Source: a virus
Lineage: Duplodnaviria > Heunggongvirae > Uroviricota > Caudoviricetes
DNA: 25,016 nt
IMG/VR virus record: IMGVR_UViG_2675903352_000013
Span: 1 to 25,016 of that record
Strand: one strand, 5' to 3'
Part shown: positions 1 to 25,016 of the stretch, one piece after another
Position numbering within the stretch: position 1 is the stretch's first letter
Layout of the letters: each line of letters opens with the position of its first letter
The notes under the pieces: model-generated
Told to the model about the DNA's origin: nothing
The model's database searches: none
The model's input: only the letters and a program-made list of their open reading frames with translations
Position numbers and translations under genes: made by a program

Positions 1-285
1 TCACTTAAATAAGTGATACTGGTTGTCTGGAGATTCAGGGGGCCAGTCTATAATAGCAGTGCGGTTAACTTCCCTCACACTCACCAGAAGTGATTCCAGA
101 CGCGTAACGGTGAAACTCCCCGGCCCAAGATTATCCAGGGCCACCAGCAAACGAGCTGTAAGCTCTGCGTCGCTGTCGTTCAGCGTTTTCACCATTCTGG
201 CCGCTACACCTGTGCTATAGCGAGATATCCAGATAGCATGGGCAATCGATTCATCACGCAGCCGTTCATTCACTGTTTGCATCAT
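1..285 (-). CDS. Phage head protein, N-terminal fragment (possibly head morphogenesis/minor capsid); gene continues beyond the window start
   Basis: ATG ATG at 285..280 on the minus strand, overlapping the portal stop (266..268); position immediately downstream of portal in the packaging operon. Family assignment is by synteny only. Confidence 0.35.
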   Translation of the reverse strand: MMQTVNERLRDESIAHAIWISRYSTGVAARMVKTLNDSDAELTARLLVALDNLGPGSFTVTRLESLLVSVREVNRTAIIDWPPESPDNQYHLFK

Positions 286-1672
286 TGATTCCCATCAGCG
301 TTACGCCCTGATTTTTTAATTCATCGATCACTTCCTCTGGACGGGAATCCTGATCGATAAATTTCAACGCCTGCAACACCCGAACCGCATCAATCTGACG
401 TATATCACCACCCTGACGCAATGACTGAACAGCCAGCGCGGAGGATGAGTCAAACACCTGGGCAGATACATCCAGCTCAGTGCGCACATCCACATTGCCG
501 CCACAACTCTCTCCGATCCATTCCGCCATTATCTGGAGAATATTATCGAGGGCATCTTCGAGGGAGTTCGCCATTGTATAAAGCGGCGAGTTTTCCTGCA
601 TCCGTTCTTCATTGGTCTGATCCACAGATTTAGTGGATGTATTTTCAGCCCGAAGAAGTTTAGCGCCGGCATGACGCATCTGATTTTCCAGTTTCTCCAG
701 AGATATTTCGCCAGACTCTATCGCGGCACCGCTATGCTCAACATATTCAAGGCCATTTTTTGCCCTGTCATCAAAAATCGTCGCGGTCGATGCTCCTACC
801 GTCAGTTCTTCGTTCCTGTCCAGTCCGTAAGCCACCAGCAATGGAACCCGAGCAACATGCAGAATATTGTCCTGCTCGCTCTGGCTTTGCCAGTGCTTGA
901 TATTCAGCAAGCCAAGATTAAGCAATGGCGGTGTACCGCGCATAAACCCGATTTTCTTCGTGTAAAGCGTTACCAAGGGAATATCATCACGGCTGGTTTC
1001 CCATGACTCGTGAAGCGTCCAGACAGATTCACCATTAGTACCTTCGCTGCGTCGATAAATTTCAACGCGACGGGACATGATATGGCGGATCTGCTCCACC
1101 TTCTTCTGCCCGAAATCATCACCATCGATAATGATGACTTCTTTTATACGCAAATCTGTGAGAACAACTTTTCCTTTTTCAACTTTCGATTTCCACCCAA
1201 TAACCTGACGGGGATTCAGCATCGTAACGTATGGGCGACTACCAACCGCATTTTCATCAGCTTTTGTCCGAATCCCTTTCATATCTGTTCGAGGATAATC
1301 CACCAGCGCATGCGCCACGCCATACTGAAGCGCTAGACAGAAAAATTGCTGCGCCCATACATCCAGTCGACTCCCCTCCATGTCGATATTTTCTGCATAT
1401 TCCCTGATTTTTTCCGGCGTCTCTTCACTCAGCACTGTCGGCTCTGCAAATATGCGCCCAATATTTTGCTTAATACTTTCTTCATACACAGGAAGTAGCG
1501 TAGCCACAGACAAGCGTTTTTTATATGTATCTTCATCTTCATTAGGCCATTTAGGGAGATAATTTTTCCCCTGCCTGCGCATTTCAAGCGTGCCACCCAT
1601 CAGTGCGTCGTTAATATCCCACGCCTCCAGCATATCGTTATAGTCGAGGTTGGGTGTTGATATATCAGCCAT
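266..1672 (-). CDS. Phage portal protein
   Basis: 468-aa ORF with ATG at 1672..1670, starting 2 nt after the TerL stop (TAA 1677..1675). Size and position directly downstream of TerL are typical of portal proteins; no specific motif recognised. Confidence 0.6.
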   Translation of the reverse strand: MADISTPNLDYNDMLEAWDINDALMGGTLEMRRQGKNYLPKWPNEDEDTYKKRLSVATLLPVYEESIKQNIGRIFAEPTVLSEETPEKIREYAENIDMEGSRLDVWAQQFFCLALQYGVAHALVDYPRTDMKGIRTKADENAVGSRPYVTMLNPRQVIGWKSKVEKGKVVLTDLRIKEVIIIDGDDFGQKKVEQIRHIMSRRVEIYRRSEGTNGESVWTLHESWETSRDDIPLVTLYTKKIGFMRGTPPLLNLGLLNIKHWQSQSEQDNILHVARVPLLVAYGLDRNEELTVGASTATIFDDRAKNGLEYVEHSGAAIESGEISLEKLENQMRHAGAKLLRAENTSTKSVDQTNEERMQENSPLYTMANSLEDALDNILQIMAEWIGESCGGNVDVRTELDVSAQVFDSSSALAVQSLRQGGDIRQIDAVRVLQALKFIDQDSRPEEVIDELKNQGVTLMGINDANSE

Positions 1673-1674
1673 AA

Positions 1675-3993
1675 TTAAATCCGAAGTGATGTAACTCTTC
1701 CGGTCGGTTTGACAATAGGGAATTGCTTAACAATAAAATAACCTCCGGCATCATTCGGGTGATCGTTGCCAGATTTTTTATCAGGCTCACCCTTATCATC
1801 CCAGACCTGTTGCTCCAGAGATTCGGCATATACCGGACAACGCTTCACATTAACTTTATAGCGACGCTCACCATTGGCATTGCAGAACATTGCATTCATT
1901 GAGTTAACGCGATCTTTTACTGGCGGATTCGAACTGTTTACAACAACGTTAAAACCAGCCTGTTTAAGCTGAGCAATATCCGTCGCACTTGCGTTATTTG
2001 ATTTTCTGGAATCCCCGGATGCATCAGGATAAATATAAATTTCCCTTACTTTCCGATAATCATTCCCGTCATATAACCAGAAGCGCTCTTTAATAATACG
2101 GATCATATCTGGTGTATCGTAAGCGTTAATGATTTCAGTTACTGCGCATGGAAGCCCAAAACGTAACACATGAACGACTCCAGCCATTTTTCCGACGTTA
2201 AAATCCATCCCGATATATATCGGCTCACCTGGCTGTTCCTCTTCTTCGCAATTATTCAGTTTTCGGTCAAACTGATGGTAAACAGTACCACTTGTCAGGT
2301 TAGTAAACTGTCCTCGAAGATAGGCTTTAATCAGCTCTGGAGGATATGACTCAAGGAGCGAGGGAATGTAATCTGCTGGCAAATTCTTTTCATTATCGAA
2401 AGTAGATGCCTGCACCAGACCATACAGTGAGGCCAGCTCTGTTTTTTCACGTACGGCTTTAACAAACTGCTCGTAGACAAATTTGAATCCTTCCGGCGTG
2501 GTTGTAACGTCAATACCGTTACGAAGTCCATCAACCTTATAACGCATACGCGCAATTATCTTGCGCCACGCTGTTCTGGCTTTTTCCTTCGGCAAAATGT
2601 CCAGTTCATCCACCAGCGCATTACCAATTTTGAAACCGACGATCGTTTGCGGCTTCTCCATCGTTCTGCAGATAGTGGTTCCACGATACTGACGTCCGTA
2701 ATAAAAATGAACTTCTTTATTTCCCTCGTTAATTTTTACATTTAGCCCCCAGTCGGCAGCAACTTCTTCAACTGTAGGATAAAAAATATCGCGAATTTGT
2801 GGATATGTAGGCGCAAAATATCCCTGATTTATACCCGGATGCTCCCAAATCCCCTTACATATGCCACCACATCCAACCCATGTTTTACCGCTATTGTGAT
2901 GAATCGTCCCATCAGCAGTTACGTAGCAGTTATTATCCAATACCTGGAGGTCATAATATGGCTCGGCCTTCTGCAACAGTGTTACACTCAATATGTTGCA
3001 GGTTTCGATTAAGGAGTTTGGTTTTGACGCCTCTTGACCGTTTAATTTGTGATTTAGCACATCCAGAACGTACCGTTTCAGAAGTTGCTTCTCTGGCAGG
3101 TTGTGACCGCAGTCATGTTTATCGTTGCATATCTCGTTATGGGTTAACGCTGAAACAACACCAGAAGCCTGTCCCTCGAGAAAGTGCGAAGGACAGAATC
3201 CTCGCTCTTGCTGATGGTCACCGTACGTCGGCAGAGATCGCGGCGGAAGTTGGTTGCACAGAAAAGCACGTTCAAAATATTCTCCGAATTCACAACGCCA
3301 ACCGGCTACCCTGTGGCGCCAGAAAGGGTGAGTTGAACCCCAGCTTTCGTGGTGGTCGAATTGTTGATCTGGATGGATATGCCGTTGTTCCAGCGCCTGC
3401 TGACCATCCATATATGCGCAGAACAGGCATGATGTTTGAACATCGTTTGATCGCTGAAAAGAAGCTGGGGCGTTATCTGCTGCCATCAGAAGTTGTTGAC
3501 CATATAGACGGGCTTCATCTGCATAACACCCCAAGTAATCTGCGAGTTTTTGATTCAAACGTGGATCACCTGCGTGCAACGATTTCGGGACGGCGGCCAA
3601 ACTGGTCAGAAGAAGGTTTTGCGAAGATGCAAATACCTTCACCGATTCGTCCAGACTATCCACAGATCGATAGCTACCGTCAGCGCAAAAAACGCGGTGA
3701 TGTCCGCTTGCTACAAATTCTCCTCGCTGCGTCACTACTCGGTATAGATTCGACACACCTTTTGGGTACGCACCACCACTTAGCGAAAGCTCAAATCGAT
3801 TATTCTCATCCGACCAAGATAAAACGCGCATTGGTCGAGTTATTTCCTGAATGGGTAGAATCCCATTCTCTGTAACCACAGGCGTACTTCCCCTCAGGCA
3901 ACCAAAACCAGCAACATAGGCTTTAAATTTATGAGGCATAGAAAGAAATCGCGCCTGAGGCACATTAAGCGTCGGAGAGATCATCTTCATCAC
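1675..3993 (-). CDS. Terminase large subunit (TerL) carrying an in-frame intein within the Walker A P-loop
   Basis: Continuous 772-aa ORF. N-extein ends KAYVAGFG and C-extein begins SGKTWVGCGG, so removing residues 32..367 restores a canonical P-loop AGFGSGKT. Downstream motifs: Walker B-like NALVDELD, and nuclease-domain acidic motifs IYIGMDFNVGK and YPDASGDS. Start overlaps the putative terS 3' end by 29 nt. Confidence 0.8.
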   Translation of the reverse strand: MMKMISPTLNVPQARFLSMPHKFKAYVAGFGCLRGSTPVVTENGILPIQEITRPMRVLSWSDENNRFELSLSGGAYPKGVSNLYRVVTQRGEFVASGHHRVFCADGSYRSVDSLDESVKVFASSQNLLLTSLAAVPKSLHAGDPRLNQKLADYLGCYADEARLYGQQLLMAADNAPASFQRSNDVQTSCLFCAYMDGQQALEQRHIHPDQQFDHHESWGSTHPFWRHRVAGWRCEFGEYFERAFLCNQLPPRSLPTYGDHQQERGFCPSHFLEGQASGVVSALTHNEICNDKHDCGHNLPEKQLLKRYVLDVLNHKLNGQEASKPNSLIETCNILSVTLLQKAEPYYDLQVLDNNCYVTADGTIHHNSGKTWVGCGGICKGIWEHPGINQGYFAPTYPQIRDIFYPTVEEVAADWGLNVKINEGNKEVHFYYGRQYRGTTICRTMEKPQTIVGFKIGNALVDELDILPKEKARTAWRKIIARMRYKVDGLRNGIDVTTTPEGFKFVYEQFVKAVREKTELASLYGLVQASTFDNEKNLPADYIPSLLESYPPELIKAYLRGQFTNLTSGTVYHQFDRKLNNCEEEEQPGEPIYIGMDFNVGKMAGVVHVLRFGLPCAVTEIINAYDTPDMIRIIKERFWLYDGNDYRKVREIYIYPDASGDSRKSNNASATDIAQLKQAGFNVVVNSSNPPVKDRVNSMNAMFCNANGERRYKVNVKRCPVYAESLEQQVWDDKGEPDKKSGNDHPNDAGGYFIVKQFPIVKPTGRVTSLRI
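2893..3900 (-). other. Intein (Hint domain) inserted in the TerL P-loop, about 336 aa
   Basis: Read directly from the minus-strand translation: block A-like CLRGSTPVVTENGILPIQEI starting with Cys (codon 3900..3898); block B-like GEFVASGHHRVF; block F/G-like YYDLQVLDNNCYVTADGTIHHN followed by +1 Ser (codon 2892..2890). No LAGLIDADG or HNH motif in this frame between the blocks. Confidence 0.7.
2958..3875 (+). CDS. HNH endonuclease (HNH_3-like motif) with two N-terminal HTH-like segments, encoded antisense within the TerL intein
   Basis: Plus-strand ORF (track 2880..3875). ATG at 2958 is preceded by GGAGG at 2946..2950 with a 7-nt spacer. Motif DGYAVVPAPADHPYMRRTGMMFEHRLIAEKKLGRYLLPSEVVDHIDGLHLHNTPSNLRVFDSNVDHL matches the classic phage HNH homing-endonuclease pattern. 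Two HTH-like repeats upstream (RTVSEVASLAGCDRSHVYRCISRYGL and RTSAEIAAEVGCTEKHVQNILRIHNA). The C-terminal ~100 aa may be non-functional read-through constrained by the opposite-strand frame. Confidence 0.6.
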   Translation: MARPSATVLHSICCRFRLRSLVLTPLDRLICDLAHPERTVSEVASLAGCDRSHVYRCISRYGLTLKQHQKPVPRESAKDRILALADGHRTSAEIAAEVGCTEKHVQNILRIHNANRLPCGARKGELNPSFRGGRIVDLDGYAVVPAPADHPYMRRTGMMFEHRLIAEKKLGRYLLPSEVVDHIDGLHLHNTPSNLRVFDSNVDHLRATISGRRPNWSEEGFAKMQIPSPIRPDYPQIDSYRQRKKRGDVRLLQILLAASLLGIDSTHLLGTHHHLAKAQIDYSHPTKIKRALVELFPEWVESHSL

Positions 3994-5059
3994 TCCTCAC
4001 TCTGGCATCAACCACATTAATATTGATCGCCACAGGCTGGGGATGTTCATTACCCTCCACCGTTTCGATCTCTTTGCGCAGTTTCTGGTTTTCCATTCTG
4101 CGCCGTTCAATTTCCAGTTCCTGCAGTCGCTTATCTGCACATAATGCCCCGCCAGCGGAAAGCAAACGCAATAATTCACGCCGGGCGGCAGCTTTATTCT
4201 CCAGCAGGATCTCAACGCCGAATTTTCCGAGCTTTGCTCCTGCATACAATTGCCGCGCATTTCCATCAAGCAAAGTGGTATCAGCCATATAAAGCTGACC
4301 TGTACCTTCTCCACCGCATTTCGGACAGTCTGGATTTGGTATGGCGCTATCAACGAAACCGAGGCCACCATATTCAGGTTCTGGTTTACCATCTTTGGAT
4401 GCCTGCGCGGCAGCCCTGTCAAATTCTGCTATATCGCGCCACTGATAGAGGTGATTCTCCCCCCAGCAATAGCGACAGTTAACACGGCGAAATTGCGCAA
4501 GCTGATTGGGATCAGCCTGCACGATGGCCATCAACTGACTCACCAGTAAATCCAGGTCTGCGGTATAGCGTTTCTGGTAATGATTGCGAAAGTAGCTGAT
4601 GGCACGAAAAACCCTGGCATTTCTAAGCATACGACTGGCATTGCTGTTTGCTGTCGCACCTTGCCCCTCGTAACCAGCCAGGCGGTATGCCTCTGTCGGC
4701 TTTTTCCCCTGAGCAACCAACATGGCGAATTTTGCCTGCTGGTCAGAAATACCGAATTCATCGGGGCAAAACGAAATTTCTTCCGTGTCCCCCTCAATCA
4801 GGAGTGCATCGGATACAGCCTTTTTTTTCTGAGATTTTCCGTTTTGCTTTTGCGCAGTCTGCGCAGTTTTTTTTCGCGCACTTTTTTGCGCAGTTTTGCG
4901 CACTTCTGTCTGCGCATTTTTCGGAGGTTTCTTGATGTAACGACGGGCTGTTGCGTAATTCAGTCCCTTTGCTTCACACCACGCCACCGGAGATACACCG
5001 GAGCGGGTGTATTCAGCAATATATTCCTGCTGCAACGCCCCCCAGTCCGGTCTGCTCAT
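3965..5059 (-). CDS. Putative terminase small subunit / DNA-packaging DNA-binding protein
   Basis: 364-aa ORF with ATG at 5059..5057, immediately upstream of and overlapping TerL. N-terminal HTH-like segment (VSPVAWCEAKGLNYATARRYI), Lys/Gln-rich low-complexity linker, CxxC...CxxC pair, C-terminal coiled-coil-like tail. Assignment rests on synteny and architecture. Confidence 0.45.
   Translation of the reverse strand: MSRPDWGALQQEYIAEYTRSGVSPVAWCEAKGLNYATARRYIKKPPKNAQTEVRKTAQKSARKKTAQTAQKQNGKSQKKKAVSDALLIEGDTEEISFCPDEFGISDQQAKFAMLVAQGKKPTEAYRLAGYEGQGATANSNASRMLRNARVFRAISYFRNHYQKRYTADLDLLVSQLMAIVQADPNQLAQFRRVNCRYCWGENHLYQWRDIAEFDRAAAQASKDGKPEPEYGGLGFVDSAIPNPDCPKCGGEGTGQLYMADTTLLDGNARQLYAGAKLGKFGVEILLENKAAARRELLRLLSAGGALCADKRLQELEIERRRMENQKLRKEIETVEGNEHPQPVAININVVDARVRSDEDDLSDA
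4842..4925. repeat. Array of six (T)GCGCA(G/C)-T-rich direct repeats at roughly helical spacing inside the putative terS gene
   Basis: Sequence ttttgcgcagtctgcgcagttttttttcgcgcacttttttgcgcagttttgcgcacttctgtctgcgcattttt; GCGCA cores near 4852, 4861, 4877, 4888, 4898 and 4911. The corresponding protein segment is a low-complexity K/T/A/Q stretch. Confidence 0.6.
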
Positions 5060-5062
5060 CAG

Positions 5063-5314
5063 TTAGTCCTGATTTTTATCCACCCTGAGTAATGCACGCA
5101 GAGCAAAGGCATCCCCTTTTCTGGCAAGCTTAAACAATGCCGCCCGTAGCTCGGCTTCACCTTTCGCTCTGCCCTTACGGATGGACGCATAAAAATTTGT
5201 CATTGTTTCCCGATTTTCTTTCAGTCTGTTCAGATCAACATCCAGAACGTCAGCGATTTGTTGTGCAGTCATCCGGCATGCTGCCAGAGACTCGACTTTC
5301 GAATACGGAATCAT
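5063..5314 (-). CDS. Small HTH-containing protein directly upstream of terS
   Basis: 83-aa ORF, ATG at 5314..5312 preceded by a GGGGGTGA Shine-Dalgarno-like sequence; stop TAA is 3 nt before the terS ATG. HTH-like segment MTAQQIADVLDVDLNRL. Confidence 0.45.
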   Translation of the reverse strand: MIPYSKVESLAACRMTAQQIADVLDVDLNRLKENRETMTNFYASIRKGRAKGEAELRAALFKLARKGDAFALRALLRVDKNQD

Positions 5315-6200
5315 TTATCACCCCCATTGATATGCAGGGTGTCTTCTTCCTGTATTTTTCGTGAAGGATTTTTACTGCAGCGTTGTTCCAGGTGACCTGA
5401 TGGTGAATGCGTTTATGGCTGGCGCCCATCAGTGAGATTTTTACGCACGACGGCGCATACATGACGGAGTAAAAACTTTTAACGTAGGTACCGGAATCCA
5501 GATACAGTTCGGTCATTCCGCCGCTGTTTTTCTGCGTTTGCTTCTGCCCTAACTGGACAGCGCCAATCGTCAAAAACAATTCACCACGACGACCGAGATT
5601 CGTGTATGTATTCACATCCTCGTTAATACGCCCCATAAATGAGAATGGTCGGTCAACAGAACAAATAAAGCTGTTCATTGCTTTGCGTTTCACCCATGCA
5701 GCATGACCACCATTATCACCAAGAAAGTCTCCCCCCTGCGCCATAGCGATGGAAAGCGCAGGAATTGATTCGTAATACGCCAGCATTTCAGAAAGGATCG
5801 CGTCCAGTTTCCTTATCGGAAAATAAGCCTGGTCATAGTTGCGATCTACCCGAAACTGAAACTCGTGATAGTCGTCATCAAGCTGGATGTAGTATTTACA
5901 CCCAACCTTTTTTGCCAGGCCCAAACAGGCATTCCTGGCATAAAAGATTGAACGTCGATCGCCAAAGTTGTCGGCTTCGTCAAAACGACTGGCGATATCG
6001 GCTTTGGAAAACACCAGCACCTGCTCACCAAATTCTGCTACGTACTGATGCCGGGTTTTATCTTCATCATCAACAACGATAAAAATTTTCCCGGTATAGC
6101 CAGCACGACGCAACGTCCGGTAAGTCAGAACTTTGTCCGGTCGCCCGTGAGTCAGAATAAAGGCGCAAAAATCATCACGCATATTACTCCTCCTCGCCAT
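5250..6200 (-). CDS. Hypothetical protein with GT-A-like glycosyltransferase signatures
   Basis: 316-aa ORF, ATG at 6200..6198 with SD GGTGGAG; overlaps the ParB-like gene by 17 nt. N-terminal pattern FILTHGRPDKVL...GKIFIVVDDED and a DxD-like motif YIQLDDDYHEF resemble the GT-A fold. The fold call is tentative. Confidence 0.5.
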   Translation of the reverse strand: MARRSNMRDDFCAFILTHGRPDKVLTYRTLRRAGYTGKIFIVVDDEDKTRHQYVAEFGEQVLVFSKADIASRFDEADNFGDRRSIFYARNACLGLAKKVGCKYYIQLDDDYHEFQFRVDRNYDQAYFPIRKLDAILSEMLAYYESIPALSIAMAQGGDFLGDNGGHAAWVKRKAMNSFICSVDRPFSFMGRINEDVNTYTNLGRRGELFLTIGAVQLGQKQTQKNSGGMTELYLDSGTYVKSFYSVMYAPSCVKISLMGASHKRIHHQVTWNNAAVKILHEKYRKKTPCISMGVINDSVFESRVSGSMPDDCTTNR

Positions 6201-6963
6201 GCATGATCTCCACCATGCGCTGCGTCATCCTGACAAACCCATTTTCAATTGCCTGCTGATAATCAATGATCACCAGAGCCGATTCCTCAAAAAGGCTCTG
6301 AATTTCAGCGGGGGCGTGAGCGTAATAGTCCGCGATTCTGCTGAAATTAAACACCGTGTGACGTTCTGCCGCGCACAGAAGGAATTTCTCAATATCAGGA
6401 TCAAGGGACACCGAACGTGTCCGGCTGATCAGCTCCTGAGTTTTCGTATCGTCGTACAGTTCACAGATATCCGGTTTATCGCCTGACGGCTCATAAACAG
6501 GCGTATCAATTTTCGTCGTATACGGCTCCTCCTCATTTCCTGTACCAGGCAAAATATCCGTCAACAGTTCATCAATTTCTGTCGGGCTGAAGCCTGTCAG
6601 GGAGACATCAAAATCAGCATTAATTAGGTCCGACAGCTCCATCCGTAACAGATCTTCATCCCAGCCAGCATTCATCGGCAGGCGATTATCTGCCAGACGG
6701 TACGCCTTTTTCTGATCATCCGTCAGACCAGACAGAACGATGACCGGAACGAAATCCATTTTGAGCACTTCAGCCGCCATAACGCGACCGTGACCCGCAA
6801 TAACTTCGCCCTTTTCATCAATCAGCACCGGATTAGTCCAGCCAAATTGCTTAATGCTTTCTACCAGTTGCGTCACCTGCTCAGGGCTGTGTGTCCTGGC
6901 ATTGTGTGCATACAGAGACAGCTCTTGTAACGGGCGATAGACGATCTTCAATTTCTCGCTCAT
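6184..6963 (-). CDS. ParB-like nuclease domain protein
   Basis: 259-aa ORF, ATG at 6963..6961 with SD GAGG. N-terminal ParB/Srx-like domain (YRPLQELSLYAHNARTH, LVESIKQFGWTNPVLID, IAGHGRVMAAEVL, KKAYRLADNRL); acidic C-terminal half. Confidence 0.7.
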   Translation of the reverse strand: MSEKLKIVYRPLQELSLYAHNARTHSPEQVTQLVESIKQFGWTNPVLIDEKGEVIAGHGRVMAAEVLKMDFVPVIVLSGLTDDQKKAYRLADNRLPMNAGWDEDLLRMELSDLINADFDVSLTGFSPTEIDELLTDILPGTGNEEEPYTTKIDTPVYEPSGDKPDICELYDDTKTQELISRTRSVSLDPDIEKFLLCAAERHTVFNFSRIADYYAHAPAEIQSLFEESALVIIDYQQAIENGFVRMTQRMVEIMHGEEE

Positions 6964-7248
6964 ACAGCCTCGCTTTATTAATAAAAAAGCCCGCTATCGG
7001 CCAGTGCGCAGGGTGCGCGGCGGGTGCAGATAACGAGCTTTGACATTATCGAAGCCCCCTATCAAAGGAGCTTCTGTAATGTCAGTCCAGAACGAACGTA
7101 ACCTTTGTATTTGTCGCTCGCCGTACAAGACGCGCTGCTTCGCGTTGCATTTCATCGATAACTTTTGGCGTCATCGGCTAATGCGCATATTTACATTCAA
7201 TCACTGCAAAAAATCCCGTTCATCGTTTCGCTGTCTGGTGGGATAACT

Positions 7249-7527
7249 TCAACGTTTAATCGTGCCATTGGTTTGTGCTGCCCTGTTTTTCTCAAAAGTC
7301 CTGATATCAGCCTTATCCCTGTTGCACTGTGCTAACGCTGACAACAATGCAACATTCAGGTTAAGGCTTGCCCCCCACGTAAACGGGTCGGGTAAATCTG
7401 GCTGGGGTGTTTCAGCCGTCAGACTGGCTGGTAACGGAACCACCGGCACCGACACGTATACCGTTCGCGTATTCGTGCAACCGCTTAACTGCGCCAGAAG
7501 GAACGATACGAACAGCGCAATCATCAT
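7249..7527 (-). CDS. Rz1-like outer-membrane spanin lipoprotein, starting inside Rz in another frame
   Basis: Internal ATG ATG at 7527..7522; signal peptide with lipobox MMIALFVSFLLAQLSGC followed by a Pro-rich mature region. Starts within Rz and extends past its stop. Confidence 0.5.
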   Translation of the reverse strand: MMIALFVSFLLAQLSGCTNTRTVYVSVPVVPLPASLTAETPQPDLPDPFTWGASLNLNVALLSALAQCNRDKADIRTFEKNRAAQTNGTIKR

Positions 7528-8264: not shown

Positions 8265-8267
8265 TAA

Positions 8268-16497: not shown

Positions 16498-16526
16498 TGT
16501 ACCATCATCATATGACATCCACCACA

Positions 16527-16880: not shown

Positions 16881-16891
16881 GGGTTTCCAAA

Positions 16892-17047
16892 ATGCAAAAA
16901 ATCGACCTCGGCAACAACGAATCCCTGGTGTGCGGCGTGTTACCCAACCAGGACGGTATGTTCACCACGATGACGTATACCAAAAGCAAAACGTTTAAAA
17001 CCGAAGCTGGTGCCAGCCGATGGTTGGAGAAGCACACAGTAAGCTAA
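16892..17047 (+). CDS. ydaG: YdaG-like small protein
   Basis: 51-aa ORF: MQKIDLGNNESLVCGVLPNQDGMFTTMTYTKSKTFKTEAGASRWLEKHTVS. Confidence 0.55.
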   Translation: MQKIDLGNNESLVCGVLPNQDGMFTTMTYTKSKTFKTEAGASRWLEKHTVS

Positions 17048-17493
17048 CGATTAAAACCTCTACTCCTGCTGTTCCAGAATAACTTCATAAAATGGGAGTA
17101 TTTTTCGGTGACGAGATAATAAGAACAGTTTGCGCTATCACTCTGATGTTGAATGATGCCCTTCCGTTCTAATTTTTTCATAACCGGGTTACGGCAAGGA
17201 GAAATGATAATAAGATTTCCTGTTTTAAGGAAATCTTTAAATACAGCGATTTCTTTCTCAGATAAACGAAGCAATACTCGTTGCTCTGGTAGTAATGAAT
17301 AATGCTTTTGAATATGCGCTCGCAATCTTGAGAAGGAAATGGCGACCACAAAAGAAAAGGCAAAAACGATAATCTGAAACAACCAAGGTATTTCAGTATA
17401 AGTATTGAATGCGACAACAAACTCTTTCGGCATCAACCAGAGAGTGAGGCCAAAAATAATAATCGTGTACATAAGTCTTTCGATGTGGCTCAT
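17044..17493 (-). CDS. sieB: Superinfection exclusion protein B (SieB-like)
   Basis: Track ORF starts at TTG 17499; first in-frame ATG at 17493..17491. Sequence SHIERLMYTIIIFGLTLWLMPKEF...FQIIVFAFSFVVAISFSRL with two transmembrane segments matches SieB as recalled. Confidence 0.7.
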   Translation of the reverse strand: MSHIERLMYTIIIFGLTLWLMPKEFVVAFNTYTEIPWLFQIIVFAFSFVVAISFSRLRAHIQKHYSLLPEQRVLLRLSEKEIAVFKDFLKTGNLIIISPCRNPVMKKLERKGIIQHQSDSANCSYYLVTEKYSHFMKLFWNSRSRGFNR

Positions 17494-17972
17494 TAGCAAA
17501 AAGTTTCAACAATGGAGTAAATACATCCAACATATCAATAACTCTCGACTGTAAGGGTATTGAAATGTTAACACAAGCTCTCGCTGTAGGGGTATAGCAG
17601 AGACCACCGAAGCCCGGAGGTGGTGAAATAAAACCGGGCACAACACGAAGGCGCATTTCCGGTATCCATAAAGAGTCGGTCTTGTCTGTTAAATTTAAAT
17701 GGTGGGAGTGCGCCTCCGGTTGTAAATAACGACATTGCTGTGTGTAGTCCTGGCGGCATCAGTTTTTTCTTGAAGTTTGGCTGATGTCCGCCCTTTTTAA
17801 AGTGAATTTTGTGATGCGGTGAATGCGGCTAAGCGCACGCGGAACAGTTAAAGCTAAAAACAGTGTTATGGGTGGATTCTCTGTATCCGGCGTTAATTGT
17901 TAACTGGTTAACGTCACCTGGAGGCACCAGGCACCGCATCGACAAAATTCATTTGTAAAAATGGAGATAATT

Positions 17973-18194
17973 ATGATTACTCATCACTTCGGAACTGATG
18001 AAATACCACGTCAGTGTGTAACTCCTGGCGATTATGTTCTTCATGAAGGCCGGACATATATCGCCTCGGCAAACAATATAAAAAAGCGAAAACTTTATAT
18101 TCGTAGCCTGACCACAAAAACATGCATTTCTGACTGCATGGTTAAAGTCTTCCTCGGTAGTGATGGTTTACCTGTAAAAGCAGAGTCATGGTGA
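17973..18194 (+). CDS. racC: RacC-like small protein
   Basis: Second ATG at 17973 is preceded by GGAG at a 6-nt spacer; product begins [26 protein letters not shown]. Confidence 0.5.
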
Positions 18195-18364
18195 TGGATA
18201 AGAAAATAAAATGTGCTTACCACCTTTGCAAAAAAGACGTTGAAGAAAGCAAAACTATTGAAAGAATGCTTCATTTCATGCACGGAACTTTATCAAAAGA
18301 CGAACCGAGAAAATATTGCAGTGAAACTTGTGCCGAAAAAGACCAGATGGCACACGAACTTTAA
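18194..18364 (+). CDS. ydaE: YdaE-like zinc-binding small protein
   Basis: 56-aa ORF not in the track: [56 protein letters not shown]; its ATG overlaps the racC-like stop (TGATG). Confidence 0.65.
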   Translation: MDKKIKCAYHLCKKDVEESKTIERMLHFMHGTLSKDEPRKYCSETCAEKDQMAHEL

Positions 18365-18438
18365 TTAACTGACTATTCGAAACTGAATTTATGCCAGCAA
18401 TGGCAGGGATTCGCTCAACCTTAATTAAGGAGAAAAAC

Positions 18439-18714
18439 ATGATTACCAATTATGAAGCCACTGTTGTAACTACTGATGACATTGTTCACGAGGTCAATCT
18501 GGACGGAAAGCGTATTGGCTACGTGATTAAAACAGAAAATAAAGAAACCCCATTCACTGTGGTTGATATCGACGGCCCATCAGGCAACGTTAAAACACTT
18601 CATGAAGGCGTCAAAAAAATGTGCCTGGTGCACATTGGAAATAATCTGCCAGCAGAAAAAAAAGCTGAGTTTCTGGCAACTCTGATTGCAATGAAATTAA
18701 AAGGTGAAATTTAA
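18439..18714 (+). CDS. kilR: KilR-like cell-division (FtsZ) inhibitor
   Basis: ATG at 18439 preceded by AGGAG at a 7-nt spacer; MITNYEATVVTTDDIVHEVNLDGKRIGYVIKTENKETPFTVVDIDGPSGNVKTL... matches Rac KilR as recalled. An upstream in-frame ATG at 18391 lacks an RBS. Confidence 0.75.
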   Translation: MITNYEATVVTTDDIVHEVNLDGKRIGYVIKTENKETPFTVVDIDGPSGNVKTLHEGVKKMCLVHIGNNLPAEKKAEFLATLIAMKLKGEI

Positions 18715-18814
18715 AAAAAAGAAAGCCTGCACAGTGTACAGGCCTGAGTGAAAAACCTGGGACATTTATTCATCACTCGCACTAAATTTTAATCTGAGTT
18801 GAGGTTAAAAAACA

Positions 18815-21800
18815 ATGAGCACTGACAAACAAAATTTTGCGTTACATTGCGACGCGAAAAATGAGGGCGCAAGAAAACGCCTCGGCATCAAAGGCGGCTT
18901 CTTCTGGACAGAGGCAAAAAAACTTTCTGTTGCGGTTTCACGCTGCATTGCTGCAATGGACGATGCAGGCTACGACGAAGATGATTTTAAAAAACCTGTT
19001 CGCGTAAATTTGCCCGTTGTTGATGACCTTCCGCCAGAAGGCGTATTTGATACGGAATTCTGCAACCGTTACGAAAAAGGCGGTGAAGATGGCATTACAA
19101 TGGTATTTATCGCGCCATCACACTCTGTTCAGGACAAACCAGCCAGCACTGACAACACCAACGTCAACGGCGAAGATATGACTGAGATTGAGGAGAATAT
19201 GCTACTCCCGATTTCAGGTCAGATTCTGCCTGTTCGCTGGCTGGCACAGCACAGCAGCGAAAAACCGGTAACGCACGTTTCACGGGAAGAACTGCGCGCA
19301 TTACATAACGCACAGGATGAAAAACTTCCCGCAGTTACAGCGCTGGCCATCTCAAATAAAGCAGCGCAACTCGAACCGCTGGAGATTCGCGATCTCCACA
19401 AACTGGTTCGTGACACTGACAAAGTTTTCCCTAATCCTGGTAATTCAGATCTGGGACTGATGACTGCTTTTTTCGAAGCATACCTGGGCACCGACTACAC
19501 CGATCGAGGTCTGCTGACAAAAGAGTGGATGAAAGGGAATCGTGTTTCACGCATCACCCGCACGCCCTCCGGTGCTAATGCTGGCGGCGGGAACAAAACT
19601 GATCGCGGTGAAGATTTCGTCCACGATCAGGCTTCGCTGGCACGCGATGTTGCGACTGGCATTCTGGCCCGTTCAATGGATGTTGATATTTATAACCTTC
19701 ATCCGGCACACGCTAAACGTATTGATGAAATCATCGCAGAGAATAAGCCGCCCTTTTCTGTTTTCCGTGACATATTCACTGCTATGCCTGGGGGATTGGA
19801 TTATTCCCGCGCCATCGTGGTTGCATCCGTGAAAGAAGCACCTATCGGTATTGAGGTTATTCACGCGCACGTCACTGAATATCTGAACAAGGTGCTGATT
19901 GAAACCAATCACGCCAATCCTGATCAGGAAATCGTGGATATTACTTGCGGCCGTTCCTCAGCCCCAATGCCACAGCGTGATACAGAAGAAGGAAAACAAG
20001 GTGAAGAAAAACCACAACCATCTGGCGCAATGGCAAATGAACAGGCAACGCCTGAAACAGTGGAACCGGATACAACTGAACATCATCAGAACACGCAGTC
20101 GATGGATGCTCAGCCACAGGTAAATTCTGTTGATGCGAAATATCAGGAACTGAGGGCAGAACTCCATGAAGCCCGGAAAAACATTCCGCCCCAAAATCCT
20201 GTCGATGCAGACAAATTACTGGCTGCCTATCGCGGAGAATTTGTTGAAGGGATTAGCGACCCGAATGATCCGAAATGGGTTAAGGGGATCCAGACTCGCG
20301 ATTCTGTGTACCAGCATCAGCCAGAAACGGAACAGAACGACCAGAAAGCTGAACAGAACAGCCCAAATACGCAACAAAACGAGCCAGAAACGAAACAGTC
20401 TGAGCCAGTAGTGCAACAACAGGAAACGGAGAAAGTTTGCACCGCCTGCGGTCAGGCTGGAGGAAATAGCTGCCCTGACTGTGGTGCAGTGATGGGAGAC
20501 GCAACGTATCAGGAAACCTTTAATGAAGAAAATATGGATGAATCTCAGGAAAAAGATTCGGAGAAAATGGAAGACGATAAACATCCGCACAAGGAAAACA
20601 CTGGCAACCATCCGCATCACAATTGCAGTGATGAAACTGGTGAAGCGTCAGCTCCTGTAGCAACTGAAATCATGTGGCCGTCATATTTCGAGCCTGGTCG
20701 CTATGAAAACCTCCCGAACGAGGTTTATCACGCCGCCAACGGAATAAGCAGCACGATGCTGAAGGATGCCCGTATCAGTTTGATGTATTACCACGGGCGG
20801 CACATTGCCGGAACTATTCCGTGTGAAGAAAGTGATGCATTGCTACGTGGGCGGATCATTCACAGCTATGTTCTGGAAACGGATAAATTCTCTGATGAAT
20901 ATGCCATTCCGGTACCGGTTCCTGAAGATGTGGTTGCCACTTCTCAAGAACTGATCGCCATTATTAAAAAACACAATGCCAGTTTGCCAGCACTGATGAC
21001 GCCAGAGCAGATAAAAGAGTGGATCGAAAACTACAACAGCACTCTTATTCAGCCACTGTCGGTAAGTGCTGGAGCCGAAGAAACAGGCATTCTTTACGGC
21101 TCGCTCCCGGAGGAATTCCGGCGTATTCCAGAAGGAGAAAAACACACTGCATCAGCAATGAAAGCCTGTATTAAAGAATACAACGCAAGCCTCCCCTCTC
21201 TACTGAAAACCAGTGGAACACGGGAGCAACTTCTGGAGCAAATTGAAACTGTAGATCCAGAACTGGCAAAAAAGAACGGGCTAAATCTTTGCCTTACAAC
21301 ATCAGTGGTACAAAAGAGCAATTAACCGAAATCGCCCGGAAAATTCGCCCGGAACTGGTAACACTGGAGGACTGGCAAAAACGCCAGCAAGAAGAAAATG
21401 CAGGAAAAACGTTTATCAGTCCAGATATGTATGAACAGGCAAAAAATATTCACGCGGCACTGCAAAACAATACTGACGCGGCAAGACTACTCAACCACCC
21501 GGATCGCAAATCTGAAATCAGCTATTTCGGGTTTGATGAAGAAACCGGGCTGGAAATCAGGGTCCGCCCTGATATCGAAATCCGACTGCCATACGAAAGC
21601 ATCTGCGCCGACGTGAAATCAGTAAGCTTCGGTTATGTGCGGCAAGAACGACTAAAAGATCGCTTACACCGTGAAATTATTGAACGTGATTATCACCTGA
21701 GCGCCGCAATGTACTGCGATGTGGCAAACCTGGATAAATTTTTCTGGGTCTTCGTCAATAAGGATGCTGGCTATCACTGGGTGGCAGTTGTGGAAGCTTC

Positions 21801-21960
21801 GCAGGAACTCCTTGAACTTGGTCGCCAGGAGTATCGCCGGACGCTACGCCAGATAAACGAAGCTCTGGAGACAAACAACTGGCCAGCACCAATTACCGAA
21901 AGTTATACCGACGAATTAAACGACTTTGATCTTCGTCGTCTTGAAGCACTGAGCATCTGA
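18815..21960 (+). pseudogene. recE: RecE (exonuclease VIII) homologue, apparently split by a frameshift into 836-aa and 223-aa ORFs
   Basis: N-terminal and central regions strongly resemble Rac RecE as recalled. The nuclease domain begins in ORF1 ([15 protein letters not shown]...[12 protein letters not shown]) and continues in ORF2 (RPDIEIRLPYE...DVKSV), which has no ATG (TTG at 21289); the frames overlap at 21247..21325. Confidence 0.7.
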
Positions 21961-21971
21961 GGAAGGACACA

Positions 21972-23024
21972 ATGAACGAATTAACTCAACAAGAAAATAT
22001 TAACTCTAACGTTGCGGTTTTCAGCCCTCAGTCCCTGGCTGCAATTCAGACATTTTCTCAGGTAATGGCTTCCGGCATGGCTACTGTACCGGAACACCTC
22101 CGGGGAAATCCATCAGACTGTATGGCCATCACCATGCAGGCGATGCAGTGGCAAATGAACCCTTACGCAGTAGCTCAGAAAACTTTCGTTGTGAATGGTG
22201 TGCTCGGATATGAAGCGCAACTGGTTAATGCCGTAATCAGTACCCGTGGACCGCTAACCGGGCGTATTGAATATGACTGGTTCGGACCGTGGGAAAAAAT
22301 TATCGGGAAATTTGAAATCAGGAAGAACGATAAAGGGAAAGAATATCGCGTACCTGGATGGAAGCTGGCCGATGAAAACGGGATCGGAGTTCGTGTCCAG
22401 GCAACGCTACGTGGAGAGAGCAAACCACGCGTACTTGAGTTACTTCTGGCGCAGGCCAGAACACGTAACTCAACGTTATGGGCCGATGATCCTCGCCAGC
22501 AACTTGCCTATCTGGCACTAAAACGCTGGGCACGCCTTTATTGCCCTGAAGTGATTCTTGGAGTGTACACCCGGGACGAACTGGACGAACCACAGGAAAA
22601 AATCATTAATCCGGTTCAGGAACATAAAAACACATCCGCCTGCCGTGCGGAACGTGAAACAACAATTATTGAGCAGGATGCCGGGGAAAACTGGATCGAT
22701 GCTTTCCGTGAACGTATTGAGCAAGCACAAAGCACCGAAGAAACAACGGCACTTCGCCAGGAAGTAGAAGCTCATAAAAATACACTTGGTGCTCTCTACA
22801 CAGAACTTAAAGGAAAAGTGGTTCAGCGTCATCACCGTCTTAATGCTATTGCCCGTATTGAGAAGATGATAAATGACCTGCCTTCATCAGGTGATCCAGA
22901 AGCAGAACAAAAATTTACGGCTCTGGAAAACACGCTGAATGCTGTACGACCACATTTAGGAGAATTATATGAGGCGTATAAAACGACACTGACAGACCTG
23001 AAACCAGAATATATCGGCTCCTGA
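21972..23024 (+). CDS. RecT/Bet (Redbeta)-family single-strand annealing protein
   Basis: 350-aa ORF immediately downstream of recE, RBS GGAAGGA. Segment TLWADDPRQQLAYLALKRWARLYCPEVILGVYTRDE parallels the conserved GPW...ARLAFGFAGIYDKDE region of lambda Bet. Confidence 0.7.
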   Translation: MNELTQQENINSNVAVFSPQSLAAIQTFSQVMASGMATVPEHLRGNPSDCMAITMQAMQWQMNPYAVAQKTFVVNGVLGYEAQLVNAVISTRGPLTGRIEYDWFGPWEKIIGKFEIRKNDKGKEYRVPGWKLADENGIGVRVQATLRGESKPRVLELLLAQARTRNSTLWADDPRQQLAYLALKRWARLYCPEVILGVYTRDELDEPQEKIINPVQEHKNTSACRAERETTIIEQDAGENWIDAFRERIEQAQSTEETTALRQEVEAHKNTLGALYTELKGKVVQRHHRLNAIARIEKMINDLPSSGDPEAEQKFTALENTLNAVRPHLGELYEAYKTTLTDLKPEYIGS

Positions 23025-23088
23025 TATTTACCATGGCGGTGTAGCCTCGCCGCCATCGCAAAATTATATATTTATGAGAGAAAAGACA

Positions 23089-23283
23089 ATGCGATATGAA
23101 AAAGTTAAGCCATGTCCGTTTTGTGGTTGTCCATCTGTAACAGTGAAAGCCATTTCAGGGTATTACCGGGCAAAATGCAACGGCTGCGAATCCCGAACTG
23201 GCTATGGTGGAAGTGAGAAAGAAGCCCTCGAAAGATGGAATAAACGAACCGCTGAAAATATTAATGGAGGCATCTATGTATAA
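23089..23283 (+). CDS. ralR: Restriction alleviation protein RalR (Lar)
   Basis: 64-aa product from the second ATG: MRYEKVKPCPFCGCPSVTVKAISGYYRAKCNGCESRTGYGGSEKEALERWNKRT..., matching Rac Lar as recalled. Confidence 0.8.
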   Translation: MRYEKVKPCPFCGCPSVTVKAISGYYRAKCNGCESRTGYGGSEKEALERWNKRTAENINGGIYV

Positions 23284-23464
23284 AATTACCGCCACAATTG
23301 AAAAGGAAGGTGGTACTCCTACTAACTGGACAAGATATTCAAAATCTAAACTAACGAAATCAGAATGCGAAAAAATGCTCTCAGGGAAAAAAGAAGCAGG
23401 CGTTTCCAGAGAGCAAAAAGTAAAACTGATGAATTTTAATTGCGAGAAACTTCAGTCCTGGTAA
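23276..23464 (+). CDS. ydaC: YdaC-like small protein
   Basis: ATG at 23276 preceded by GGAGG at a 6-nt spacer; overlaps the ralR stop; product MYKITATIEKEGGTPTNWTRYSKSKLTKSECEKMLSGKKEAG... Confidence 0.6.
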   Translation: MYKITATIEKEGGTPTNWTRYSKSKLTKSECEKMLSGKKEAGVSREQKVKLMNFNCEKLQSW

Positions 23465-23563
23465 GTTGCATTGTATTCAAATTAAAACTTCATAGCTGAT
23501 TATTAATAATCAACGCCGGGCGTCAATTTCTGTCTAATATTGTCGCCCGCCAGAGGTGATGCG

Positions 23564-23779
23564 ATGGCACAAGTGATCTTTAATGAAGAGTGGATGGTTG
23601 AATACGGTCTGATGCTTCGTACTGGTCTGGGGGCCAGACAAATTGAAGCATATCGCCAGAACTGTTGGGTGGAAGGCCTCCACTTCAAACGAGTATCTCC
23701 TTTAGGTAAGCCAGACAGCAAGCGAGGGATTATCTGGTACAACTATCCGAAGATAAATCAGTTTATCAAAGACTCATAA
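23564..23779 (+). CDS. xisR: Excisionase (XisR/YdaQ-like)
   Basis: Track ORF starts at TTG 23540; ATG at 23564 is preceded by AGGTG. 71-aa product [44 protein letters not shown]...; stop abuts the integrase ATG. Confidence 0.75.
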
Positions 23780-23780
23780 T

Positions 23781-25016
23781 ATGTCTAAATTACCAACAGG
23801 TGTCGAGATTCGAGGTAAATACATTCGCATCTGGTTCATGTTTCGAGGGAAACGATGTCGGGAAACATTGAAAGGCTGGGAGGTTACTAACAGTAACATT
23901 AAAAAGGCCGGGAGTTTAAGAGCATTGATAGTTCACGAAATAAATTCCGGCGAGTTCGAGTATTTAAGACGTTTTCCCCAGTCCAACACCGGGGCAAAAA
24001 TGGTGACAACGAGGGTCATAAAAACATTCGGAGAGCTTTGTGATATCTGGACAAAAATTAAAGAGACAGAGTTAACAACAAACACAATGAAGAAAACAAA
24101 ATCACAATTAAAAACCCTCAGGATAATCATTTGCGAGAGTACCCCAATATCACATATTCGTTATAGCGATATCTTAAGCTACCGAAATGAACTGCTGCAT
24201 GGAGAAACGCTTTACCAGGATAATCCAAGAGTCAACAAAAAAGGAAGAACCGTGCGCACAGTTGATAACTATATCGCCCTGCTATGTTCGTTGTTACGTT
24301 TTGCGTATCAGTCGGGATTTATATCAACCAAACCATTTGAAGGAGTAAAAAAATTACAGCGAAACAGAATAAAGCCTGATCCGTTATCTAAAACAGAATT
24401 CAATGCATTAATGGAAAGAGAAAAAGGACAGAGTCAAAACTTGTGGAAATTTGCTGTTTACTCCGGGCTTCGTCACGGGGAACTGGCAGCCCTGGCGTGG
24501 GAGGATGTGGATTTCGAGAAGGGAATTGTGAATGTCAGAAGAAACCTGACGATACTTGATATGTTCGGTCCTCCAAAAACAAATGCCGGGATCCGAACGG
24601 TAACATTACTGCAGCCTGCTCTTGAAGCACTGAAGGAGCAATACAAACTGACCGGACATTATCGCAAAAGCGAAATCACCTTTTATCATCGGGAGTATGG
24701 CAGAACCGAAAAGCAAAAACTGCATTTTGTTTTCATGCCCAGGATGTGTAACGGAAAACAAAAACCTTATTACTCGGTAAGCAGTTTGGGGGCGAGATGG
24801 AATGCAGCAGTAAAACGTGCTGGTATTCGCCGCCGTAATCCGTACCATACGCGACATACTTTTGCCTGTTGGCTGTTGACGGCAGGAGCGAACCCGGCAT
24901 TTATAGCCAGCCAGATGGGGCATGAAACTGCGCAGATGGTGTATGAAATTTACGGTATGTGGATTGATGACATGAACGACGAACAGGTAGCCATGTTGAA
25001 TGCGCGGTTATCGTAG
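23781..25016 (+). CDS. intR: Tyrosine-recombinase integrase (IntR-like), complete, ending at the window edge
   Basis: 411-aa ORF with ATG at 23781 and TAG at 25014..25016. N-terminus MSKLPTGVEIRGKYIRIWFMFRGKRCRETLKGW and C-terminal catalytic region HTRHTFACWLLTAGANPAFIASQMGHE match Rac IntR as recalled. Confidence 0.9.
   Translation: MSKLPTGVEIRGKYIRIWFMFRGKRCRETLKGWEVTNSNIKKAGSLRALIVHEINSGEFEYLRRFPQSNTGAKMVTTRVIKTFGELCDIWTKIKETELTTNTMKKTKSQLKTLRIIICESTPISHIRYSDILSYRNELLHGETLYQDNPRVNKKGRTVRTVDNYIALLCSLLRFAYQSGFISTKPFEGVKKLQRNRIKPDPLSKTEFNALMEREKGQSQNLWKFAVYSGLRHGELAALAWEDVDFEKGIVNVRRNLTILDMFGPPKTNAGIRTVTLLQPALEALKEQYKLTGHYRKSEITFYHREYGRTEKQKLHFVFMPRMCNGKQKPYYSVSSLGARWNAAVKRAGIRRRNPYHTRHTFACWLLTAGANPAFIASQMGHETAQMVYEIYGMWIDDMNDEQVAMLNARLS

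Follow-up and report, generated by a model that had tools for sequence, protein, structure and literature searches.

We analysed a 25,016-nt stretch of DNA (IMG/VR record IMGVR_UViG_2675903352_000013; hereafter the window, meaning the whole stretch), and the reading to which we assign a probability of roughly 85% is that it represents 25 kb, at the integrase end, of a lambdoid prophage of the Rac family, inserted in ttcA of Escherichia albertii and decaying, whose terL gene carries a composite of an intein and an antisense HNH nuclease gene. The prophage adds one more to a type already on record, since Rac-like prophages of full length have been described at ttcA before, and as a prophage it matters little beyond providing an E. 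albertii example for the full-length Rac family and showing what the K-12 Rac has lost. For the insertion in terL, we consider the balance tipped slightly in favour of a class of composite mobile element that is old and widespread and has apparently not been described before, namely a P-loop intein with an antisense HNH gene in which the C-terminal nuclease domain and the N-terminal splicing lobe are co-encoded under dual purifying selection.

The window corresponds to positions 42-25057 of contig BBVQ01000008.1 (locus L005) of E. albertii NIAH_Bird_8, the strain to which the accession series BBVQ01000001-167 belongs (PMC5797873); the source record is a draft assembly of 167 contigs, and identity of locus L005 to window positions 13781-25016 is 100%. 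The chromosomal flank ttcA-dbpA-zntB is only about 87% identical to any E. coli, and the window itself shows 91-96% identity to E. coli Rac-like prophages and deposited phage genomes. The integrase (23781-25016, plus strand) is a complete open reading frame (ORF) of 411 amino acids with its stop codon at 25014-25016, as the initial annotation had it, and the expectation that the attachment (att) site and the insertion target lie just beyond position 25016 was borne out when the flank was examined: ttcA starts 52 nt past the integrase stop in the source contig, and the att core, AAGAAAGAACAATACAATCTCAACAA, is found in its 5' end (L005 position 11312, approximately window-equivalent 25092-25117, so that ttcA and the core occupy the sequence 52-100 nt past the window). 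The search for att repeats thus yielded the proximal core in the source contig itself, and the distal copy was seen in the syntenic prophage of E. coli MEI003, in a ttcC'-like remnant beside uspF, about 51.7 kb away. Between its two att copies the MEI003 prophage has a full head-tail module and type III secretion system (T3SS) effector genes; at its distal end (L018 13475-17734), nleG, a HECT-type E3 ligase gene and nleC lie between the tail fibres and the distal att.

This location is that of Rac, whose attL has been placed inside ttcA, and of Sp10 and CP-933R, prophages resembling Rac, which occupy the same site (PMC4632033). In the window's host, too, the prophage is integrated at the 5' end of ttcA; the att core is within the coding sequence, and the phage supplies the N-terminus of TtcA. 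The integrase and excisionase (23564-23779, plus strand) are of the IntR/XisR type, with 94% DNA identity to K-12 intR-xisR-ralR and amino acid identities to their MEI003 counterparts of 97.6% (IntR) and 98.6% (XisR); Pfam recognised Arm-DNA-bind_2 and Phage_integrase in the former and DUF1233 in the latter, and tblastn agreed for both.

K-12 Rac (b1345-b1375, between ttcA and ttcC') has the same integration site and orientation as the window and shares with it intR, xisR, ralR/RalA, racC, ydaE, kilR, sieB, ydaF/G, ydaT/U/V/W and ynaK. When aligned with K-12 MG1655 Rac, 8,020 of the 25,016 window bases matched at 82-94% identity, in blocks corresponding to int-xis-ralR, part of recE, racC-kilR-sieB-ydaF/G, ydaT, ydaU/V/W and ynaK, and window positions 51-6709 and 7008-13173 had no K-12 Rac counterpart in the alignment, which argues that K-12 Rac is a deletion derivative of such a phage. 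The Rac early set, recE/recT, racC, kilR, sieB, ydaT/U/V/W and RalR/RalA, is present in Rac order, with recE, sieB and ydaW frameshifted. Together with the gene map, the alignment supports the initial description of a Rac-like early region joined to a nin-like region, a Q-like gene, a lambda-like lysis cassette and a terS-terL-portal operon, and likewise the statement that K-12 Rac is a cryptic remnant short of most structural genes: where the nin/Q/lysis and TAGT-terS-terL-portal-head-tail blocks would lie, nothing is annotated in K-12 but ydaW, remnants of the spanin genes rzpR/rzoR, trkG, ynaK and ydaY. Missing from K-12 Rac are therefore the nin/Q/holin/endolysin block and all that would lie from ynaK (ParB) to ydaY, whereas the window has the late block as far as the portal; conversely, K-12 Rac has trkG, racR/ydaS and a 269-residue recT product, none of which alleles is found in the window, where recT and the C-terminus of recE are a different allele from that of K-12 and the host is E. 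albertii.

Closer in organisation are Sp10 and CP-933R (O157:H7), Rac-SA53 (KU052037), vB_EcoS-666R9 (ON470614; hereafter 666R9) and the MEI003 prophage, in which the order of modules from int to the portal and beyond is the same as in the window and which are inserted in ttcA where the site is known. Full-length Rac-like relatives aligned over 69-84% of the window at about 91-93% identity, 666R9 covering 69% at 91%; Rac-SA53 covered 41%. Sp10 and CP-933R are reported to have retained their replication machinery and infectivity (PMC4632033). In E. coli the full-length versions have trkG, and tRNAs and T3SS effectors are present in some of them, whereas the immunity cassette and the set of lesions in the window are peculiar to it, and among these named relatives the terL intein is found in MEI003 only.

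The RacR/YdaS immunity pair that typifies the Rac family was not found in the window. The repressor-like HTH_3 protein (16025-16444, plus strand; 139 amino acids) is unrelated to RacR (BLASTP E-value of 2) and the Cro-like HTH_3 protein (15686-15928, minus strand) is not a ydaS allele; both lack similarity to the 666R9 allele and are also unlike the allele of other E. albertii strains with the same integrase, and DNA positions 15696-16585 had no match to K-12 or MEI003. The segment 15686-16444 is an immunity-cassette swap. Immunity swaps are ordinary within lambdoid families, so the mismatch with RacR/YdaS does not exclude membership of the Rac family.

The terL gene (1675-3984, minus strand; Terminase_6N/6C) has 772 codons in the window as against 433 residues in the intein-less phage 666R9. 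Relative to the 666R9 gene, the difference is a precise, in-frame insertion of 336 codons (1,008 nt) that separates GFG from SGKT in the Walker A motif and divides the precursor into an N-extein (3901-3984), the intein (2893-3900) and a C-extein (1675-2892), and the Pfam terminase domains begin only after residue 368. With a slash marking each junction, the ends read AGFG/CLRGSTPVV and DGTIHHN/SGKTWVG; in the intein-less gene of the 666R9 type the site is GGTTTTGGC joined directly to TCGGGCAAAACATGG. The residues expected of a splicing element, C1, the block B motif S65-x-x-H68, H335-N336 and the +1 Ser, are all present, and C1, H68, H334, H335 and N336 are invariant in 15 divergent copies. 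A profile built from these 15 inteins matched the DnaB mini-inteins in the PDB (4o1r, E-value 8.7e-15; 1mi8, 1.1e-12), with the N- and C-lobes aligning as two separate stretches. In agreement with this, the AlphaFold2 model has confident β structure at residues 1-92 and 299-336 and low per-residue confidence (pLDDT 25-58) at residues 93-298, the top 25 Foldseek hits for the model are all inteins or Hint domains (probability 1.00), and the Pfam family PF14890 is recorded on two homologues (P0122 and P0123). The insertion is a predicted class-1 intein with a Hint fold. The linker of about 205 residues between the lobes is, in the terL sense, non-conserved and modelled with low confidence, and it lies at the usual endonuclease insertion point; a related terL mini-intein (P0126) has no nuclease region. 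As a separate observation, the MEI003 terL (L001 9625-12030), which PGAP labels a pseudogene, carries an additional in-frame direct duplication of 87 nt in its C-extein.

Within the intein, on the opposite strand, lies a gene of 283 codons (3024-3875, plus strand) for an HNH protein. The longest ORF runs from an ATG (2880-3875), and the probable start is the TTG at 3024, which follows an AAGGAG at 3011-3016. Pfam matches were to HNH_3 (25.4 bits against a cut-off of 24.8) and HTH_29 (33.6 bits), and D160, H161, D163, G164, H168, N169, N173, N180 and H183 are invariant in 20 homologues. Altogether 380 homologues were retrieved at an E-value of 0.001 or below; the 120 listed among them, from Yersinia, Pseudomonas, Acinetobacter and many metagenomes, have identities of 45-92%. 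The AlphaFold2 model (pLDDT 78, predicted template-modelling score 0.36) consists of loosely packed domains with confident C-terminal helices; its global Foldseek search was dominated by helix-turn-helix (HTH) proteins, and comparison with the homing enzyme I-HmuI (1u3e) gave a local match of 96 columns with a probability of 0.97 and an E-value of 0.16. The HNH protein is presumably a homing endonuclease that cuts intein-less terL. That the gene is a chance antisense ORF was considered and rejected on the strength of the 380 homologues, the Pfam hits and the excess of third-position substitutions described below.

The arrangement is conserved well beyond Escherichia. A scan of species-representative genomes gave 18 loci and divergent HNH homologues a further 3, and the HNH gene was antisense within a long open frame in 19 of these 21 divergent loci (16 of the 18 from the genome scan and all three from the contigs of HNH homologues), the open terL-sense frames spanning 346-1160 amino acids and mostly 650-840. 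At 15 of the 19 loci, a Gly is followed by the intein Cys and a terminal HHN by Ser, Thr or Cys and then GK(S/T); the other four showed an HN/SGKS junction under a looser pattern. The frame relation between HNH gene and intein is identical in every locus, and in 15 of 17 the distance between the HNH stop codon and the N-terminus of the intein is 13-49 nt. When the HNH ORF was shuffled synonymously, 4-11 stops appeared in the terL frame, which remained stop-free in 0.65% of trials or fewer, as against no stop at all in any of 15 loci examined; that the terL-sense frame is open by chance was rejected on this basis. Substitutions add to the picture: in the linker, differences at HNH codon positions 1, 2 and 3 were 0.39, 0.32 and 0.63, and this third-position excess indicates that only the HNH frame is under protein-level selection there, whereas under the Hint N-lobe, where the C-terminal 100 or so codons of the HNH gene (about 300 nt) are co-encoded with the splicing domain, the corresponding values were 0.33, 0.375 and 0.37, and this equal constraint points to two proteins read from opposite strands.

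The prophage as a whole appears damaged. Nine lesions were listed, counting the mismatch of repressor and cro with RacR/YdaS and an insertion sequence (IS) end at the left edge of the window. The lambda-R-like endolysin gene (7788-8264, minus strand) has a TAG at codon 26 (8187-8189) where five relatives have CAG; recE (18815-21960, plus strand) has lost one A from an A7 run at about 21268 and is split into 836 and 223 residues; ydaW (12862-13675, minus strand; DUF1627) is frameshifted by A3>A4 at 13373-13376; ybcO (9640-9929, minus strand) has a -1 frameshift at 9841/2 in common with strain L014; sieB (17044-17656, minus strand) has a +1 frameshift near 17484; and two damaged small ORFs (11882-12441, minus strand) have, respectively, an additional T at 12352 (87-residue ORF) and GAA>TAA at codon 3, positions 12182-12184 (103-residue ORF). 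The terminal 50 nt (1-50) match at 100% a multi-copy sequence in 4,503 of 5,426 E. coli genomes, on both chromosomes and plasmids, and in one of these (L017) they close an element of 1,331 bp (TGGATTTGCCCC...GGGGGCCAGTCTA) that encodes a frameshifted transposase of the IS3 family and has duplicated 5 bp of its target. Only the last 50 nt of this IS2-type element are in the window, its body lying outside both window and contig; the source contig begins 41 nt to the left, and this start within an IS is an assembly break at a repeat. Prophage DNA of the relatives matches from position 51 onward only, from which it follows that the Mu-F-like head-morphogenesis gene (52-282, minus strand; phrog_241, and 100% identical by tblastn to residues 1-77 of the L014 protein) is cut after codon 77 of 370.

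In relatives that are 98.6-99.4% identical over window 51-11257, R and Mu-F are intact and are followed by capsid, tail-tube and tape-measure genes, and recE is also intact in relatives at this level of identity; the head-tail module, and with it any continuation to the left of position 1 such as the initial annotation had proposed, was seen in the relatives only, the window's contig ending in the IS. With intact genes in such near relatives, decay in this strain looks recent, and one of the two outcomes that the initial annotation had allowed, a recently inactivated phage, fits. Its other statements on integrity need revision. The few point lesions it mentioned, an amber codon and frameshifts, do exist, yet there are more than a few, and an IS in addition; the lysis and packaging modules are not complete as they had appeared, R being interrupted by the amber codon and terL by the 1,008-nt in-frame intein.

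Several observations weigh against our interpretation as a whole. The source is a draft, and sequencing errors could account for single-base frameshifts such as those in recE (A7>A6) and ydaW (A3>A4); of the IS no more than a contig end is visible, where a simple insertion and a deletion are not distinguishable; Pfam intein models gave no hit on the window terL at an E-value of 0.01 or below; the HNH model resembles I-HmuI over a local stretch and with a weak E-value (0.16); and a promoter scan found no sigma-70-like promoter around the antisense HNH gene. Carried to its end, the first of these points would mean that most of the lesions are draft-assembly artefacts in a prophage that is really intact, the IS end being where the assembler broke at a repeat. 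The 167 contigs, the two frameshifts in A-runs and the contig start 41 nt from the window are in keeping with such artefacts, which we nevertheless regard as an unlikely explanation: the R amber codon is a substitution and not an indel, the frameshift in ybcO is found again in genomes that were assembled independently, one of them complete, sieB in other E. albertii copies is called only from downstream of the frameshift site, and with an IS end directly against codon 77, a copy of the IS must be physically linked to the prophage there.

It is quite unlikely that, instead of being a homing endonuclease, the HNH protein assists packaging as a cofactor of the terminase, in the manner of HK97-like cos phages. 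HNH genes beside terminase genes are often packaging factors (PMC3592412), and the gene does lie in the packaging operon region; however, it is antisense to the late operon and always nested in the intein, it is absent both from 666R9, which has the same terS, terL and portal, and from 5,425 of 5,426 complete E. coli genomes, and the nearest structural match to its model appears to be the homing enzyme I-HmuI. The single complete E. coli genome with the element is MEI003, in which the element is 98.5% identical. Comparison of window 1551-4250 with MEI003 revealed a block, with terL and its intein at the centre, of about 99% identity between flanks of 86-95% identity, and the junction codons differ synonymously from those of the intein-less allele (GGT/.../AGC GGT against GGC/TCG GGC in the latter). 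The block and the codons are also what co-conversion would leave, and may represent a co-conversion tract left by homing between phages of E. albertii and E. coli.

That the prophage is still a functional, inducible temperate phage, its lesions dispensable or suppressed, was the other outcome allowed initially, and we judge it distinctly improbable. Much is intact, including the integrase, excisionase, att, replication genes, Q, holin, spanins, terS, portal and the terL frame, and recE, sieB, ybcO and ydaW are plausibly dispensable, two of these lesions being common to other strains. An endolysin gene with TAG at codon 26 in place of the CAG of five relatives and a head-morphogenesis gene cut by the IS2-type end after 77 of its 370 codons are harder to accommodate, and simple SOS induction cannot be taken for granted with a repressor that has no self-cleaving peptidase domain. 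The prophage in this strain is most likely unable to form plaques, and it should not be assumed inducible; as the integrase, excisionase and att look intact, excision may still occur.

Annotation pipelines offer some ground for supposing that the 1-kb insertion simply inactivates terL, leaving a pseudogene with a free-standing HNH gene and a functionless terL-sense frame. PGAP places an HNH gene on the opposite strand of the MEI003 terL, which it calls 'incomplete, missing N-terminus', the intein models of Pfam give no match, and the precursor is almost never called: among 5.8 billion proteins, 6 resemble the intein in the terL-sense frame, as against the 380 matches to the antisense HNH. We consider simple inactivation highly improbable given that the terL frame is stop-free in all 15 divergent loci where shuffles give 4-11 stops, that the canonical junction residues are conserved, that Hint-fold and PDB intein hits were obtained with dual constraint under the N-lobe, and that isolated, propagating phages carry the arrangement. 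Pectobacterium phage Ymer, in which the product is annotated as a hypothetical protein of 754 amino acids, and Pseudoalteromonas phage PHS3, in which terL is split in the annotation, each carry the element in their only terL, so that the terminase can evidently work with it, and splicing of the intein is argued for. Together with the terL frame that is kept open, this is indirect evidence that a ligated, active protein would result. A group I or II intron with a homing endonuclease ORF has a negligible chance of accounting for the insertion. Phage introns with HNH ORFs are common, and the Rfam scan covers the known intron families, yet no Rfam intron match was found in the window, and an insertion of exactly 336 codons, in frame, stop-free, with Cys and His-Asn/Ser ends and a Hint fold points to an intein.

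Antisense homing nucleases are known, as LAGLIDADG enzymes in the Synechocystis DnaX intein and as LAGLIDADG or VSR-like enzymes in actinophage inteins, including those of terL; in the same survey, antisense ORFs are typically outside the splicing domain and HNH nucleases are listed only in frame (bioRxiv 10.1101/2025.01.02.630785). The DnaX and actinophage cases have in common with the window a splicing domain in the host frame, a nuclease on the opposite strand inside the intein and mis-annotation by gene callers, and terL is among the host proteins of the actinophage cases. The nuclease differs, being in the window HNH_3/I-HmuI-like with N-terminal HTH repeats and found in phages of Proteobacteria, whereas the antisense nucleases of the actinophage survey are LAGLIDADG or VSR-like. 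Hidden out-of-frame HNH genes of the ShiLan type in mycobacteriophage DNA methylases (PMC11855218) resemble the window in that the insertion is stop-free in the host frame with the HNH in another, and the HNH cores are about 44% identical over about 80 amino acids (phage records H74-H85); in the ShiLan type, however, there is no detectable splicing domain and the HNH is on the same strand, whereas the antisense HNH of the window is flanked by a canonical Hint domain. Also on record are mini-inteins located at the P-loop of terL, and 'fractured genes' accompanied by free-standing nucleases (Dassa et al. 2009, PMC2677866). The mini-intein without a nuclease region, P0126, supports invasion of an intein by a free-standing nuclease as in the fractured-gene model; fractured genes are split, whereas the window gene is unsplit and precursor and nuclease share DNA on opposite strands. 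Our literature searches, the coverage of which was incomplete, so that a prior description is possible, returned antisense LAGLIDADG and VSR-like nucleases and no antisense HNH overlapping a Hint lobe. The antisense HNH/intein arrangement is probably a new variant.

Within E. albertii, the element is present, with neither frame interrupted, in each of the nine copies examined, namely the window and all eight loci having the same portal. Gene callers take the HNH strand and truncate or drop terL, as in MEI003, where PGAP labels terL a pseudogene; calls of phage completeness that rely on an 'intact terL' would be wrong for this lineage, which represents a systematic annotation blind spot. The HNH/intein unit offers a natural case of two conserved proteins on opposite strands, in a host range that allows tests of splicing, homing and antisense expression. 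If the interpretation as a composite class is true, a Rac-like Escherichia phage would become a tractable model for the merging of free-standing nucleases with inteins (mobile inteins having a 'splicing-first' origin) and for genes of bacteria that overlap at length in antisense.

From the gene content, the following cycle can be proposed. The HTH repressor and cro-like protein would form a switch governing divergent early operons, the rightward comprising kilR-racC-recET-ralR-xis-int and the leftward the ydaT-ydaU-ydaV replication genes followed by the nin genes and Q. A Q-dependent late operon would provide S-R-Rz/Rz1 lysis and headful packaging by terS, a T4/P22-type terL and the DUF4055 portal, and IntR/XisR would recombine the att sites inside ttcA. 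The class-1 intein between GFG and SGKT would have to splice out of the TerL precursor to restore the ATPase, and the HNH enzyme presumably cuts intein-less terL, with repair then copying intein and nuclease together (homing).

The map of the window was assembled from ORFs, Pfam and PHROG scans, Pfam matches on near-identical proteins and tblastn with annotated relatives. From the left, and after the Mu-F-like fragment, the minus strand begins with the portal gene (266-1672; DUF4055, 468 amino acids, intact), which matched phrog_145 with an E-value of 2e-161 and the product of which is identical on many contigs, and continues with terL and terS (3965-5059; Terminase_2, 364 amino acids, intact and 99.7% identical to an L012 protein), a small ORF with a match to the terS-like phrog_309 (5063-5314), a gene for a TET-associated-glycosyltransferase-like (TAGT-like) protein (5250-6182; PF20691, E-value 1.7e-35) and one for a ParB_N protein (6184-6963), the full-length counterpart of the K-12 ynaK remnant, to which window 6710-7007 aligns. 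The last two (5250-6963), just upstream of terS, may be a DNA-modification or packaging-site accessory pair. No trkG is present at 6963-7249, between the spanins and the ParB-like gene, where K-12 Rac and most E. coli Rac-like prophages have it.

The lysis cassette, of the lambda type and downstream of Q, follows with the spanin genes (7249-7804; Rz at 7412-7804 and an Rz1-like ORF within 7249-7593; phrog_214, phrog_456 and phrog_3001), the amber-inactivated R-type transglycosylase gene and a class I holin gene of the lambda S family (8268-8627; phrog_126, with PF05106 on the relatives' product). Beyond it are the Q-like late regulator (9101-9643; DUF1133, with a weak match to Phage_antitermQ), ybcO, a DUF1367/NinB-like gene (9929-10528; phrog_319), a Hok/Gef-family toxin gene (11088-11243; 90% identical to the MEI003 Hok by tblastn, PF01848 in relatives), several small ORFs, the damaged pair among them, and a DUF977 gene (12438-12854). 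The scan for tRNAs found none in the window; in E. coli relatives, tRNA-Gly and tRNA-Thr lie between Q and the holin gene (MEI003). The strand ends with ydaW, ydaV (13647-14393; DnaC/IstB-like ATPase, by Pfam and tblastn), ydaU (14400-15188; replication initiator-like, aligning to K-12), ydaT (15267-15689; PF06254) and the cro-like gene.

On the plus strand, the HTH repressor gene is followed by ydaG/ydaF-like genes, kilR, ydaE and racC (17973-18714 for these three; tblastn and K-12 alignment), recE, recT (21972-23024; a 350-residue allele, by Pfam and tblastn), ralR (23089-23283; toxin, by tblastn), a DUF1187 gene, xis and int, with sieB among them on the minus strand. The minus strand also encodes the RalA antitoxin small RNA (23282-23460; RF02694, 209 bits against a gathering score of 170), which was the only match in the Rfam gathering-threshold scan of the window, with no intron and no Sok. 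There are accordingly two toxin modules, a Hok/Gef gene without a Sok at the Rfam gathering score and RalR with a full-length RalA. Finally, terS is polymorphic among the E. albertii copies for an in-frame indel of 27 nt at 4871-4897, giving products of 364 or 355 amino acids.

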